Shown: positions 1 to 4,553 of the stretch, piece after piece | How positions within the stretch are numbered: the stretch's first letter is position 1 | Layout: every line of letters starts with the position of its first letter | DNA from: a virus | Lineage: Duplodnaviria; Heunggongvirae; Uroviricota; Caudoviricetes | IMG/VR virus record: IMGVR_UViG_2534682256_000015 | Length of the DNA stretch: 4,553 bases | Strand: one strand, 5' to 3' | Notes under the pieces: generated by a model | The model's database searches: none | Seen by the model: only the letters and a program-made list of their open reading frames with translations | What the model was told of the DNA's origin: nothing | Position numbers and translations under genes: made by a program

Positions 1-57
1 CGGGGGAAAAACGTGTATTTTTAGTCATCCTGTTTACCTCTTTCTCAGGGAGTTTAG

Positions 58-82
58 TCTCCAGGATTCCCGGGGCGGTTCA
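58..82. repeat. Left copy of a 25-bp imperfect inverted repeat (tctccaggaTTCccggggcggttca); partner at 4473-4497 on the opposite strand
   Basis: Direct comparison of 58-82 with the reverse complement of 4473-4497: 9 identical bp, 3 adjacent mismatches (ttc vs aaa), 13 identical bp. Immediately preceded by an in-frame TAG (55-57) and immediately followed by the start of tfa homology. Confidence 0.8.
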
Positions 83-615
83 ATCTGCTGGCCGGAACTA
101 ATGAATTTATTGGTGAAGGTGACGCATACATTCCGCCTCATACAGGTCTGCCAGCAAACAGTACCGATATTGCACCGCCAGATATTCCGGCTGGCTTCGT
201 GGCTGTTTTCAACAGTAATGAGGCATCGTGGCATCTCGTTGAAGATCATCGGGGTAAAACGGTTTATGACGTGGCTTCCGGCGACGCGTTATTTATTTCT
301 GAACTCGGTCCGTTACCGGAAAATGTTACCTGGTTGTCGCCGGATGGAGAGTGTCAGAAGTGGAACGGCACATCCTGGGCGAAAGATGCAGAAGCAGAAA
401 AACTGTTTCGGGTACGGGAGGCAGAAGAAACAAAAAACAGCCTGATGCAGGTAGCCAGTGAGCATATTGCGCCACTTCAGGATGCCGTAGATTTGGATAT
501 TGCGACGGAGGAAGAGGCATCGTTACTGGCTGCATGGAAGACATATCGGGTATTGTTGAATCGTGTTGATACAACAGTAGCAGCGGATGTTGAGTGGCCA
601 GTCGCCCCACAATAA
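79..615 (+). CDS. tfa: Tail fiber assembly protein, lambda Tfa/TfaE type; 5' end atypical, no ATG/GTG/TTG in frame between the TAG at 55-57 and the GTG at 199
   Basis: Frame 1 is open from 58 to the TAA at 613-615. The translation [46 protein letters not shown]...[26 protein letters not shown] matches, from memory, the lambda/e14 Tfa family including the C-terminal EWPxxP end. The ORF-track start at 199 is an internal GTG; the usual N-terminus (about 15 residues) is missing. Confidence 0.8.
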
Positions 616-655
616 AAAGAAAAAGCCATCGACAGAAATATCGATGGCTTTATGT
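614..655. terminator. Bidirectional rho-independent terminator between convergent tfa and the acetyltransferase gene
   Basis: Perfect 11-bp stem AAAGCCATCGA (622-632) / TCGATGGCTTT (641-651) with an 8-nt loop. On the - strand the hairpin is followed by TTCTTTTT; on the + strand it is preceded by an A-run and follows the tfa stop directly. Confidence 0.65.
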
Positions 656-658
656 ACT

Positions 659-1231
659 CTATTTATACAATACAACACCACTCTTTTTAGTTATATATGT
701 GCAGTTTGATGGTATATCTTTATTTATAAAAGACATTGCACCTATTTTTACATTATCCCCAATTTTACGTGATAATCCAATGATGCAACAATTAGCTCCG
801 ATATCAACGTTACTACCAATTTTTACTCTTGAACTAGGCATATCACCATCTATCTGTCCAATGGTAGTATTCTGTCGTAATACCAGATTTTCACCCGCAT
901 CAACAGCAAAATGAACAACAATTCCAGCATGATGGGGAATTGTCAACCCTTTTCCAATATTTGCGCCCAATCCTATTTCACAACCAAACTTGTTAATTAT
1001 TTTACTGTTTAACTTTTTGGCTGCTTTCTTATGTAATTTATTACCATTAATATACATTTCGTTAGCCAACCGCCACCAGAAAAGGAAATTCCGGTTACGC
1101 TGCTTTTTCTCTCTTAAAAGCCTCCAGATATCCATACGTTTCCGCCGAATTACTTCATGTTTCCAGAAGTTTTTTAAATTAGTAGAGTTTCCAAATAAAA
1201 CAAAGTGAATTGCCATTAAGTAAGATAGCAC
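659..1231 (-). CDS. Hexapeptide-repeat (left-handed beta-helix) acetyltransferase, CysE/WcaB/EpsC serine-acetyltransferase-like; probable sugar/polysaccharide O-acetyltransferase
   Basis: Translation contains FLFWWRLANEMY...FGCEIGLGANIGKGLTIPHHAGIVVH followed by repeated [LIV]G-x4 hexapeptide units (KIGSNVDIGANCCIIG...KIGDNVKIGAMSF). Preferred start is the GTG at 1231-1229, preceded by AAGGAG (1243-1238) with a 6-nt spacer. Alternative in-frame starts are the GTG at 1264 (ORF-track start, no SD) and the ATG at 1216. Stop TAG at 659-661. Confidence 0.8.
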   Translation of the reverse strand: MLSYLMAIHFVLFGNSTNLKNFWKHEVIRRKRMDIWRLLREKKQRNRNFLFWWRLANEMYINGNKLHKKAAKKLNSKIINKFGCEIGLGANIGKGLTIPHHAGIVVHFAVDAGENLVLRQNTTIGQIDGDMPSSRVKIGSNVDIGANCCIIGLSRKIGDNVKIGAMSFINKDIPSNCTYITKKSGVVLYK

Positions 1232-1282
1232 GATAATCTCCTTAATTATTATTTCAGACCACACATGTTATAAGGTTAAGAG

Positions 1283-1311
1283 ATTATAAAATCCTGTTAT
1301 TTGTTATTCAA
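1283..1311 (-). promoter_or_regulatory. Sigma70-like promoter for the acetyltransferase gene: -35 TTGAAT, 17-bp spacer, -10 TATAAT
   Basis: The reverse complement of 1283-1311 reads TTGAAT-aacaaataacaggattt-TATAAT. It lies about 40-50 nt upstream of the SD/GTG at 1243-1229 in AT-rich DNA. Confidence 0.5.
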
Positions 1312-1344
1312 AAACAATTTTCTGAGAAGGACATACAACAGCAA

Positions 1345-1377
1345 GTCGCCAGTCACCTTCATCAGGAAATTGGCGAC
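1345..1377 (-). terminator. Possible weak terminator hairpin downstream of gpU (7-bp stem GTCGCCA/TGGCGAC, 19-nt loop)
   Basis: Inverted repeat 1345-1351 / 1371-1377 just after the gpU stop (1388-1390). The stem is short, the loop long and the T-tract poor. Confidence 0.25.
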
Positions 1378-1387
1378 ATACGTTAAA

Positions 1388-1882
1388 TCAGAGCAGCCCC
1401 TTAACTGAGCTGGCCGCGCTATTAAGGGATGATGTCACCTTATCTTTGAAGCCGGACAGCATATCGCTGAACGATGAGGATTGCAGGCGCTCCCGCAAAT
1501 CCTCATCACAGCGTTCAAGAGTCAGTGAAAATTCTATCTTTTTCGCCTTACCGTAGCGATCAAACTCGGAGCGGGTCGTATTCGTTCCGGTCAGGACATA
1601 CATGCCGTAAATCTGCCCGACGCCATCAATCAAAGGCCAAGGACGTCCTGTATATGCCTGCGTGGTCAACAACGACAGCGACACTTCGCCACCAGTAATC
1701 TCAGGATAAAGAACACCAGAAAGAACGATGCGATCATCACCTGCACCGATATACTGCCAGCTTGCTGAACGGTTAACGCGTTCATTTTTCACATGTCGCC
1801 AGCTTTTGTTTTGCTGTAACTGCTGATGCGGCAACGTGCGCAGCTCAAAAACAAACATGCCGTAGATCATCATCATGGCCAT
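1388..1882 (-). CDS. Phage tail protein, P2 GpU family
   Basis: 164-aa ORF with ATG at 1882 and TGA at 1388-1390. The pattern FVFELRTLPHQ...SWRH...RVNRS...LSGVLYPEITGG...WPLIDGVGQIYGMYVL...KIEFSLTLER matches my recollection of the GpU family. GAGGAG lies just upstream (1888-1893), overlapping the stop of the preceding ORF. Confidence 0.7.
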   Translation of the reverse strand: MAMMMIYGMFVFELRTLPHQQLQQNKSWRHVKNERVNRSASWQYIGAGDDRIVLSGVLYPEITGGEVSLSLLTTQAYTGRPWPLIDGVGQIYGMYVLTGTNTTRSEFDRYGKAKKIEFSLTLERCDEDLRERLQSSSFSDMLSGFKDKVTSSLNSAASSVKGLL

Positions 1883-1888
1883 GACTCC

Positions 1889-2725
1889 TCAATCTTTATC
1901 GTAAAAACTGCCACGCCTGGCACGGGCGCGCCGTTCCATTTCTGCCCTGACCATTTCGCCGACCAGTTTCGCCAGTTCGCGGGGATTCTGCGTAACAACG
2001 TTATGCAGATGAACATGAATTTCACCGCCAAATCCGGAGGCAACAGGCTCCCGGTTACGGGAAGTTGCAGGAACTGATGCCACTGGCGATCGTATGGCCT
2101 CCACCACCGGGCGGGAGCTGGCCGCAACAACAGGGACCAGCGCCGGAGGCAGCGGAGCCGGGACCACGGGTGTGATATTAATTGCGGGGGCAGGCTTACT
2201 GACCTGCGCAATCTTCCGCTCCTGCCACTCCCCACGAACAGCAAGTGCGCGGGGCAGGTTCTTAAAGACAATATCGCCGGGGCCAATGCGTTTTTTTGTC
2301 TCATCAACCAGCTTACCTGTGTTATCAGCAATTTTGCTGAGTCTGCGTAGCGTGCCGGTATTGCTGTCTGTGAGAGGTTTGTTGTCTTTGGGTTTATCAT
2401 CTCCGGTGCCATTGCTATTTCCCGCAGACTTCGGCGGATTGATTTTCGCAATGTCTCCCTGAAACAGAGCAACCTTGTCCTGAAGAATGGCCGCACGTTG
2501 TGCGTCTTCGATTTTCTTGCGCGCCCTTTCCGCTTCATCCGGAAGCACACCGAGTTTTTCAAGTATCCACGCCAGCGTATCCAGCAACATTTTTGCAGGC
2601 GTCAGAACAAGCTGTAACGCACCACCAAGAACGTTACCGAATACCTCGCCAGCACTGGTACATTTATCCAGCGTTTCCTTGCTGGACTCCATCGGTGACA
2701 GCAGCGATTTAAACCAGTTAAACAC
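1889..2725 (-). CDS. Tape measure protein, C-terminal segment (278 codons from the GTG at 2725); probably the continuation of the 2602-4443 ORF after a frameshift
   Basis: Open frame from the TGA at 2756-2758 to the stop at 1889-1891. It overlaps the 3' end of the upstream TMP ORF by 124 nt in a different frame. Contains a Pro/Ala-rich linker (PAPAINITPVVPAPLPPALVPVV). Its stop overlaps the gpU SD, which suggests translational coupling. Confidence 0.6.
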   Translation of the reverse strand: MFNWFKSLLSPMESSKETLDKCTSAGEVFGNVLGGALQLVLTPAKMLLDTLAWILEKLGVLPDEAERARKKIEDAQRAAILQDKVALFQGDIAKINPPKSAGNSNGTGDDKPKDNKPLTDSNTGTLRRLSKIADNTGKLVDETKKRIGPGDIVFKNLPRALAVRGEWQERKIAQVSKPAPAINITPVVPAPLPPALVPVVAASSRPVVEAIRSPVASVPATSRNREPVASGFGGEIHVHLHNVVTQNPRELAKLVGEMVRAEMERRARARRGSFYDKD

Positions 2726-4443
2726 CTGGCTGAACCGCTTCCGATTACGTCAAAAACAGGGCCAAACCGTTCAAAGGTGTCGCGCAACGGGGTCAGCCTT
2801 TCCATAATCCCGCTGAACACCCCGGCAAAGAAAGCCCTGATAGGATCCCAGTATTTCCAGATAAGAACGGCAGCTCCGGCAAGCGCAGCCACGATAAGAC
2901 CAACCGGACTGAACAACGCCCCGATAACGCCTCCCAGTAAAGAAACGGAACCCGTCACCATTCCCCATAGCGCAGGTAACACCCTGACGACATTCATTGA
3001 CCGGGTAAGAATGTCAAAACCAAGACGCAGGGTGGCCAGCTTCCCGTAAAGCACCCCAATAACCAGCGACAACGAGCCAATCGTTGCAGTCATTGCCAGC
3101 AACGCACCGCCTGCTATCAGTAGCTGGCGCGTCAGTACCGGATGGGCCTGCGCCAGCGAGGTGATTTTTTCAAGCACCCGCGTGAGCCACTGCGTGACAG
3201 AACGCAGCGGACCGTCAACCAGATCACTGATGCGAATACGAAGACCTTCCCATGCGCTGTCGAGATTTTTCAGGTCCCCATCAAGATTATCAGCCATTAC
3301 TTTTGCGACGCGATCGGCCTCTCCCCTTGCCCCCTGCAATTCTCTGGTCAGTTTTTGCAGCTCTCCTGAACCAGCCGCCGCAACAAGCGTCTGCAAACCA
3401 ACGAACGCCTCTTCTCCGGCGATGTCCTTGAAGAAGGAGACCTGGTCCACCTGTCCGTATTTTTGTGTCGCCTTATAGAGATCAAGCAGCACATCCTCCA
3501 TCGGGCGCATTTTGCCTCTGGCGTCAGCAACTGACACCCCCAGCTCTTTCAGTGCATCAGCCGCAGCTTTTGGCGGTGATGCAAGGCGGGACAGACTTGC
3601 GCGCATGGCCGTGCCAGCATCGCTTCCGCGAAGACCATTATTGGCAAGCATCCCGGCCATGGCCGCCGCTTCTTCAAGACTGATACCAAGTTTTGCGGCA
3701 ACCGGACCGGTATACTTCATGGTTTCGCCCAGCGCGCGTAAATCAGTATTGGTCCGGGTAAATGCTGCTGTCAGCGTATCGCCCACCCGGTCCATTTGAT
3801 CGGCTGTCAGGTTGAACTGTGTGAGGATATTGGAGCCTATATCAGCCGTCTCGCCGAGTTCGACGCCACCTGCCAGCGCCATATTAAGAACACCGGGCAA
3901 TGCGGCCTGAATGGCCTGCGGAGTAAAACCAGCCATTGCCAGAAAGCTCTGCCCACTGGCGGCATCACTCGCAGTAAACTGTGTTTCAGCAAGTTTTAAC
4001 GCCTGCTCACGCAGCGCCTTAAACTGCGGGCTGTTTTTGTCGATTCGCGTCAGTGCCTGAACGCGGGACATCTCTTTGCCGAACCCGATCGCAGGCTGCA
4101 AAAAACGCCCGGCAGCATAGCCGCCCGCCGCTGCCGCACCAATTGCCAGCGCACCACCTGTTTTCAGTTTTCCCGCGGTTTCCTGCGCGTGCGAATACCG
4201 CTCACGCGCCTGCGTTACACGCGCAAGCGCCTGCCGTTCGCGTTCAAGCTGGTTGTTGTATTGTTCGGTGCGTCTGATGGCCTGCTGAATGGTGTTATCG
4301 CTGCCTGTCAGGGAAATGCCGTGGCGTTTCAGCTCTCCGCCAAGTTCCCTCATTTTCTGAATTTCCCGTGTGCGCGATTCATTCAGGCGTTCAAGCCGGG
4401 TGCTTAACTGCTGCATCAGCTTTTGTTGTTTTTCGCTGAGCAC
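2602..4443 (-). CDS. Phage tail tape measure protein, N-terminal and central part (613 codons, GTG start)
   Basis: Long Ala/Gly/Leu-rich ORF with a coiled-coil-like N-terminus (EKQQKLMQQLSTRLERLNESRTREIQKMRELGGELKR), a central region typical of tape measure proteins, and hydrophobic segments near the end (LLIAGGALLAMTATIGSLSLVIGVLYG...). The last ~35 codons before the stop at 2602 are Cys/Trp/Arg-rich and look out of frame, while the overlapping frame reads as normal protein. Confidence 0.8.
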   Translation of the reverse strand: MLSEKQQKLMQQLSTRLERLNESRTREIQKMRELGGELKRHGISLTGSDNTIQQAIRRTEQYNNQLERERQALARVTQARERYSHAQETAGKLKTGGALAIGAAAAGGYAAGRFLQPAIGFGKEMSRVQALTRIDKNSPQFKALREQALKLAETQFTASDAASGQSFLAMAGFTPQAIQAALPGVLNMALAGGVELGETADIGSNILTQFNLTADQMDRVGDTLTAAFTRTNTDLRALGETMKYTGPVAAKLGISLEEAAAMAGMLANNGLRGSDAGTAMRASLSRLASPPKAAADALKELGVSVADARGKMRPMEDVLLDLYKATQKYGQVDQVSFFKDIAGEEAFVGLQTLVAAAGSGELQKLTRELQGARGEADRVAKVMADNLDGDLKNLDSAWEGLRIRISDLVDGPLRSVTQWLTRVLEKITSLAQAHPVLTRQLLIAGGALLAMTATIGSLSLVIGVLYGKLATLRLGFDILTRSMNVVRVLPALWGMVTGSVSLLGGVIGALFSPVGLIVAALAGAAVLIWKYWDPIRAFFAGVFSGIMERLTPLRDTFERFGPVFDVIGSGSARCLTGLNRCCHRWSPARKRWINVPVLARYSVTFLVVRYSLF

Positions 4444-4465
4444 TGTACCCGTGCGTTGTAACTGA

Positions 4466-4553
4466 TTAAGGGTGAACCGCCCCGGTTTTCCTGGAGAGTG
4501 TTTTATCTGTGAACTCAGGCTGCCAGATCATCGTTTCCGATGGAAGCATAATA
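4466..4553 (-). CDS. 3' end of an upstream ORF that runs off the window (...MIWQPEFTDKTLSRKTGAVHP*); possibly the frameshift-extended tail assembly chaperone (P2 E+E' / lambda G-T analogue)
   Basis: This frame is open from the window edge to the TAA at 4466-4468, 23 nt upstream of the TMP GTG. A second frame, the -1 partner, terminates earlier at the TGA 4528-4530. The gene is partial and only 29 codons are visible. Confidence 0.3.
   Translation of the reverse strand, partial: IMLPSETMIWQPEFTDKTLSRKTGAVHP
4473..4497. repeat. Right copy of the 25-bp imperfect inverted repeat (reads tctccaggaAAAccggggcggttca on the - strand)
   Basis: See feature 58-82. It lies 30 nt upstream of the TMP GTG start and contains a short internal dyad AACCG-GGG-CGGTT that the left copy lacks. 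Confidence 0.8.

Follow-up and report, generated by a model that had tools for sequence, protein, structure and literature searches.

The window analysed here, a stretch of 4,553 nucleotides taken as a whole, carries a reading frame for a tail-fibre assembly protein (tfa), a cargo gene and two tail genes of the P2 type between two pieces of insertion sequence (IS) DNA. The tfa frame occupies 82-615 on the plus strand and, as judged from a Pfam Caudo_TAP match and from alignment to the gene of the sorbitol-fermenting Escherichia coli O157 strain 493/89, corresponds to codons 16-192 of a lambda-type tail-fibre assembly gene followed by the stop codon at 613-615. It converges with a hexapeptide-repeat (serine O-acetyltransferase-like) cargo gene at 659-1231 on the minus strand, which gave a weak Hexapep match, is listed in RefSeq as WP_000954203.1 and has a GC content of 0.34 as compared to about 0.50 in its flanks. 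A hairpin terminator, consisting of a 13-pair stem and then a T-run on the minus strand, is located between the two genes at 622-651. The minus strand further encodes a P2 gpU-type tail protein (1388-1876; Phage_P2_GpU, E = 1.5e-38) and a tape-measure protein of the P2 T type (1889-4472; PhageMin_Tail). The gene for the latter is described as 'frameshifted' in RefSeq and is cut at its 5' end by the second IS at 4472/4473; an intact version would reach about 220 nt beyond 4472. Compared to 493/89, T carries a 1-nt deletion, which shifts the frame, together with an adjacent substitution near 2734-2735, and an in-frame deletion of 3 nt at 3990. The two overlapping open reading frames at 1889-2725 and 2602-4443 result from the 1-nt deletion.

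The convergent tfa and acetyltransferase pair (82-1231) shares 91-93% DNA identity with the P1-like phages JL22 and vB_EcoM-Ro157c2YLVW (L003, 3956-5150; L005, 3956-5054), and in both phages it is located within the Cin-invertible C segment. The pair evidently represents a host-range/cargo module that was swapped between P2-like and P1-like phages. The FI-FII-E-T-U tail cluster lies on the strand opposite to tfa and D, in intact relatives (L006, 19084-27000; L007, 8090-16400) as well as at 1388-4472 of the window, and this arrangement differs from the gene order of phage P2. An origin of this order by IS-mediated inversion was ruled out: the intact prophages of O55:H7 DEC5B and 493/89 have the same order, and the arrangement is therefore native. 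In addition, this type of P2-like phage carries a gene for a macro-domain protein between the tail-fibre gene and tfa.

Reading and translation of the window placed an in-frame TAG at 55-57 on the plus strand, which lies within the IS and closes the tfa frame upstream; from 58 the frame stays open up to the TAA at 613-615. It encodes SPGFPGRF at 58-81, directly followed by NLLAGTNEF, and the Caudo_TAP region is still whole in the remaining frame (ORF residues 65-185; PF02413, E = 6.2e-40, 136.8 bits against a cut-off of 22.1, profile positions 1-131 of 131). A codon-by-codon listing showed zero ATG, GTG or TTG codons in this frame over 58-198. The first start-type codon is the GTG at 199-201 on the plus strand, which is codon 55 of the intact 192-codon gene and lies 39 codons past residue N16. 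Near-cognate codons ahead of this GTG are CTG at 85, 88 and 148 and ATT at 109, 130, 169 and 184, and no others. A canonical start that had been overlooked through misreading of the frame was ruled out, as re-reading of codons 58-235 found none. The chance of 47 codons without a start codon is about 0.09 under uniform codon use, (58/61)^47, and is not rare by itself; the missing start becomes meaningful by comparison with intact genes and not by codon statistics.

Complete genes were sought with a query in which the 5' 45 nt of lambda tfa were joined to window 82-1300. Complete tfa genes at 99.8-100% identity occur, among other genomes, in O55:H7 DEC5B, O157:H7 LSU61 (LSU-61) and 493/89, and at least one copy with an intact 5' end is present in these three strains. 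The gene of 493/89 is 579 nt long and opens with ATG GAT TTC AGA ATG AGT GAA CAA CCA CGG ACC ATA AAA ATT TAT, after which AAT CTG follows at the junction; its ATG is thus located 45 nt upstream of the junction and is preceded by GAGGTG. Homology of the window to intact tfa, as seen with lambda, P1-like phages, DEC5B and 493/89, begins at 82/83, equivalent to nucleotide 46 of the 579-nt gene, and this breakpoint coincides with the last base of the inverted repeat described below. When lambda tfa, two P1-like phages and a complete IS copy were aligned, the IS gave way to tfa at ...GGTTCA|ATCTGCTGG (...GGCGGTTCA|ATCTGCTGGCC). This position is ambiguous by 1 nt, because the A at 82 could either close the IS or open codon 16. 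When window 40-1300 was compared to phages, all 210 among the matches listed aligned from query position 43, which is window position 82. From there on, window 82-4472 is 99.9% identical to tfa and the downstream genes of 493/89.

What tfa has lost are codons 1-15 (MDFRMSEQPRTIKIY), the GAGGTG ribosome-binding site and its connection to the upstream operon. A complete gene would show an ATG with its Shine-Dalgarno (SD) sequence and an N-terminus of the form MxFRMSEQxRTIKIY; in the window these 45 nt and the SD are absent. The remnant resembles lambda Tfa (orf-194) and the Caudo_TAP family of tail-fibre assembly chaperones in that its DNA is 90% identical to lambda tfa over 82-599 and that it is the same from N16 on. 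It differs in that its conserved 15-residue N-terminus is gone along with the ATG, the SD and the tail-fibre gene that would lie upstream, and in that it resides in a P2-type and not a lambdoid genome. The preliminary description of this DNA, made from the window alone, had read the frame as open from 58 after the TAG, without a canonical start up to a GTG about 40 codons into the conserved Tfa sequence, and with the normal N-terminus replaced by repeat-encoded SPGFPGRF. Each of these points was confirmed, and the alignment to intact tfa genes proposed there as a check mapped the breakpoint to the nucleotide, apart from the 1-nt ambiguity.

The conservation of the missing segment was surveyed by searching a large protein collection with Tfa residues N16 to the end and comparing the best 120 cluster representatives; the homologues number 1,913. 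Exactly 15 residues precede N16 in 91 of these 120, with the consensus given above; four start at M5, and the shorter ones are partial sequences at contig edges. Residues M1, F3, M5, S6, T11 and I12 are each at least 90% conserved among the Tfa homologues. In an AlphaFold2 model of an intact homologue, residues 10-17 form the first beta-strand, which pairs with a strand at 23-32. The best model reached a mean pLDDT of 80.5 and a pTM of 0.45 and the other four were worse, so that the assignment of beta-1 counts as moderate evidence only. On this model, and as a supporting point only, beta-1 of the N-terminal beta-sandwich would keep just two of its eight residues after the truncation. For phage Mu, an earlier report, which cites the Mu structure 5YVQ, gives the N-terminal domain as the fibre-binding part of Tfa (PMC9608196). 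When the PDB was searched with the sequence of intact Tfa, the match to Mu Tfa (5YVQ) was confined to the C-terminal helices and is therefore uninformative on the N-terminus.

The inverted repeat of the window consists of two 25-nt arms, 58-82 and 4473-4497, which are 88% complementary. Both arms belong to longer matches to a full 1,310-bp IS1203 copy from a related genome: window 1-82 corresponds to its positions 1229-1310 at 97.6% identity and window 4473-4553 to its positions 1-81 at 98.8% identity, both plus/plus, and the two IS copies thus have the same orientation. The segment 1-82 (minus strand) is the IRL, the transposase-proximal end, of an IS629/IS1203-type element of the IS3 family, and 4473-4553 (minus strand) is the IRR end of a second copy oriented like the first. 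Within the former, 58-82 is the 25-nt terminal inverted repeat, which ends in ...GGCGGTTCA, identical to the full IS1203 copy, and encodes the foreign SPGFPGRF in the tfa frame. The IS termini read TGAACCGCC...GGCGGTTCA and are of the 5'-TG...CA-3' type, as in IS629/IS1203 of the IS3 family. The orfA start ATG is located on the minus strand at 28-26 with GAGG before it, and only the first 28 nt of orfA fall within the window. By these matches, the inverted repeat is formed by the IRL of one IS copy and the IRR of another in direct orientation.

In related genomes, the left IS copy is a remnant of 1,057 bp (IS positions 254-1310) with 50 differences and 95.3% identity to IS1203. RefSeq lists it there as an IS3 family transposase, frameshifted and incomplete; full copies are annotated with the programmed -1 frameshift of orfA/orfB that is typical of the group. 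Since the copy beside tfa is cut to 254-1310 and is about 5% diverged, it is older or belongs to a different IS629 subtype, and its transposition is no longer possible. A target-site duplication of 3-4 bp, as left by simple insertion, was not found at the left junction, which fits a deletion instead: the IS lacks everything before its position 254 and borders, on its left, on prophage DNA from a distance of 16.4 kb, so that no duplication could be present. The locus resembles the known IS629/IS1203-linked decay in O157:H7 with regard to the terminal TGAACCGCCCCGG..., the 1,310-bp full copies, the orfA start at the IRL, the programmed-frameshift transposase annotated in full copies of related genomes and, at both ends of the window, genes cut precisely at the IS terminus. 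It differs in that the copy beside tfa is itself truncated (254-1310) and about 5% off the active IS1203 copies.

The locus is the Sakai prophage Sp13, a published defective P2-like prophage of E. coli O157:H7, whose equivalent in EDL933 we take to be CP-933T. As in Sp13, genes for a replication endonuclease and ParM/partition are followed by the IS and only a few tail genes, and many O157:H7 genomes contain the stretch 1-4472 of the window at 100% identity. Nothing essential sets the locus apart from Sp13. Sp13 has been described as lacking most morphogenetic genes and yet being able to excise, replicate and be packaged with the help of other prophages (PMC2669165), and its IS629 sites have been catalogued (PMC3271280). 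Of 5,426 complete E. coli genomes, 255 contain a 44-mer across the left junction (22 nt of IS and 22 nt of tfa) at 100% identity, and all listed examples among them are typical O157:H7; the segment is carried by 495 genomes. Unlike in Sp13, T in the window ends at the right-hand IS junction 4472/4473; the corresponding segment (4451-4494) occurred in 0 of the 5,426 genomes, and the source strain thus carries one further IS-associated change. The right junction arose either by a new insertion into T that is specific to this strain, or by a deletion of about 3.2 kb next to the IS which reaches the IS1203 copy that, in other strains, is found beyond the sheath gene (L001, 13634-14943).

Strain 493/89 harbours a complete P2-like prophage, which, to judge from the yecA flank and from an IS30 element within gene D, occupies the same site in the chromosome. 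Its gene order is integrase, replication endonuclease, ParM/partition genes, two cargo genes, portal, terminase, scaffold and capsid, followed by lysis, baseplate and tail-fibre genes, the macro-domain gene, tfa, the acetyltransferase gene and U, T, E, FII, FI and D. Compared to this prophage, O157:H7 lacks 16,398 bp (L009, 11337-27734) and has the 1,057-bp IS remnant in their place. The deleted segment comprises the portal, terminase, capsid, lysis, baseplate, tail-fibre and macro-domain genes together with the first 15 codons of tfa, its SD and the operon promoter. Accordingly, the cognate tail-fibre gene that would adjoin tfa upstream is gone, as is the macro-domain gene, both of which are present in 493/89 and DEC5B. 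The rest of the prophage has decayed as well, with T frameshifted and IS-cut and D truncated. Sorbitol-fermenting O157 strains, including 493-89, are reported to lack IS629 (PMC3271280), which fits the intact tfa allele in 493/89.

These results strongly indicate that the tfa frame at 82-615 is, with high probability, a dead, 5'-truncated remnant in the defective P2-like prophage Sp13, caused by an IS629/IS1203 terminus together with a 16.4-kb deletion. The transposase-proximal terminus of an IS629/IS1203-type element abuts nucleotide 46 of tfa, and the deletion has removed all DNA from the partition genes of the prophage up to this nucleotide, leaving the 1,057-bp IS piece. Either the insertion came first and was followed by the deletion, or the deletion itself may have been IS-mediated. 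The frame at 58-81 is open by chance, where the terminal inverted repeat is read against the direction of the transposase, and the second, directly oriented IS copy cuts the tape-measure gene. On this reading, tfa has no start codon because the IS and the deletion took its first 15 codons, and the remnant is presumably neither expressed nor functional. The preliminary description had offered, as the first of two options, a 5'-truncated remnant created by the recombination event that left the repeat. This option is supported and can be sharpened to the IS terminus and the deletion; the tie between truncation and repeat stands, and what has to be revised is the nature of the repeat, which is the terminal inverted repeat of IS629/IS1203 and not the scar of a recombination site.

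The second option was that tfa starts in an unconventional way or gains a fusion through rearrangement. It is highly improbable that the remnant is translated at a low level from CTG 85 or 88, with the G-rich IS terminus standing in for a Shine-Dalgarno sequence, and that small amounts of a Tfa shortened by 16-17 N-terminal residues act in trans to help side-tail-fibre assembly of lambdoid prophages. The IS-derived GGGGCGG, 4-7 nt before CTG 85/88 and at a spacing of 7 nt to CTG 88, pairs with the anti-SD at -7.2 kcal/mol, close to the -7.3 kcal/mol of the native tfa SD, but pairing at or below -6 kcal/mol is reached at 7.8% of the positions in the window, a background against which the SD-like match is not significant. 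CTG is moreover a very poor initiator, with an efficiency in E. coli of about 0.1-1% of that of ATG. Scans for a sigma-70-like promoter found none in window 1-720 and a single chance-level match in the 1.4 kb upstream, where the DNA ahead of the remnant is the antisense strand of the IS transposase. RefSeq/PGAP does list a protein starting at the CTG at 85-87 on the plus strand (WP_001310336.1, 176 aa; CDS at 6085-6615 of the locus, window 85-615), but in strains with a variant junction the annotated start moves to an ATT inside the IS repeat (WP_032169999.1, 181 aa). As the start calls shift among non-canonical codons, they reflect homology-driven choices of the pipeline and are not evidence for translation. 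The complete Caudo_TAP region would suit a working protein, and the packaging of Sp13 with the aid of other prophages demonstrates that cross-talk among prophages exists; the side tail fibres of the many lambdoid prophages of O157:H7 might in principle use a chaperone made from the remnant. Against this, the 15 missing residues are near-invariant in homologues and make up most of beta-1 in the model, and the cognate tail-fibre gene is deleted. No support was found for an unconventional start. Even less probable, to the point of being negligible, is that GTG 199 starts a natural short form of Tfa with only the Caudo_TAP core. The open reading frame from this GTG runs over 199-615 (138 aa) and contains the Caudo_TAP match entirely, but its start position is shared by none of the best 120 homologue representatives, the shortest of which are contig-edge partials, and no intact, non-partial homologue of about 138 aa was found in the sample examined. 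The GTG has no SD (-3.5 kcal/mol), and its use would, on the predicted structure, cost beta-1, beta-2 and half of the N-terminal domain. The survey thereby rules out a natural start at this position, which the preliminary description had named as a finding that would overturn its reading; intact homologues begin 45 nt upstream of the junction with an ATG and a Shine-Dalgarno sequence.

A further reading takes the inverted repeats for the crossover sites of a programmed DNA-inversion or shufflon-type system like Mu G, P1 C or e14 P, in which a flip of the 4.4-kb segment would supply tfa with a start codon or an N-terminal fusion partner. As in Mu G/Gin, P1 C/Cin and e14 P/Pin, a segment bearing tfa is bracketed by inverted repeats, here of 25 nt around 4.39 kb; P1-like phages, JL22 and Ro157c2YLVW among them, hold the same tfa and acetyltransferase pair inside the invertible C segment, and in some Rac-like prophages a Stf-Tfa fusion lies beside a Pin-type invertase gene. 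Unlike in these systems, the repeats at the present locus come from two IS629/IS1203 copies, the IRL from one and the IRR from the other; these copies are in direct orientation, and recombination between them would delete the segment and not invert it, and an oppositely oriented alternative fibre or chaperone copy is lacking. No invertase or resolvase gene was found in 16-19 kb of context, covering 6 kb on either side of the segment, and the window contains no second tfa or stf fragment and no long inverted repeat other than IS IRL versus IS IRR. A flipped segment would place the cut tape-measure gene, and not a start codon, beside the left IS. None of the 5,426 complete genomes has the right junction, while 255 share the left one as a fixed feature; the arms therefore do not form a conserved functional pair. 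An invertible segment was ruled out by the missing invertase and the direct orientation of the IS copies; we consider this explanation to have practically no chance of being correct, and the proposed fusion by rearrangement is left without support.

Besides the IS-tfa junction of the window, a second form (junction B) was observed in eight complete O157:H7 genomes, e.g., that of strain 4276 (L008, 2990-4330, as compared to window 1-100 and L001, 5012-6090). Junction B has a full-length IS1203, 7 extra nt of the left flank (ACCAACA) and 4 fewer nt of tfa (IS|GCTGGCC as compared to IS|ATCTGCTGGCC). A derivation of either junction from the other by deletion alone was found to be impossible on comparison. 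As simple deletion cannot turn the junction in the window into junction B, more than one event must have shaped the locus. At IS position 1297, the full IS of junction B has the same variant base as the copy in the window, and this suggests that IS copies have recombined or undergone gene conversion.

Unrelated chimeras in the protein collection join a foreign N-terminus to Tfa exactly at A19, with the sequence ...[M/V]AGTNEF (P0035, P0038, P0039, P0041, P0042, P0044 and P0045). Their partners include Lom residues 1-113, the N-terminal domain of Stf in a Rac-like prophage with an adjoining Pin-type invertase gene, a terminase fragment and others. At the DNA level, the junctions of such chimeras (L010, 4300-4360; L013, 4320-4380) have only TGG to TGGCCGG in common. 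The breakpoints in tfa thus lie at codon 16 for the IS junction, at codons 17/18 for the variant junction and at A19 for the chimeras. This clustering hints that codons 15-19 of lambda-type tfa may be a recurrent breakpoint, possibly a local hot spot of recombination or insertion.

RefSeq/PGAP annotates the remnant as a normal protein and not as a pseudogene (window 85-615; L008, 4294-4839), and its 176-aa form serves as a cluster representative in the large protein collection (P0001). The finding is therefore of value for annotation: RefSeq gives a remnant that lacks a start codon the name 'tail fiber assembly protein' like any regular entry and lets it begin at a CTG or, in one junction variant, at an ATT, and such entries propagate through protein databases looking like complete proteins. 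In addition, the 44-mer across the left junction is a clean lineage marker. The biological weight is small. An IS-truncated pseudogene in a well-studied genome is ordinary prophage decay of an already documented kind, and the locus adds another case of IS629-driven prophage decay in E. coli O157:H7, in a prophage, Sp13, that had already been described as being without morphogenesis genes.
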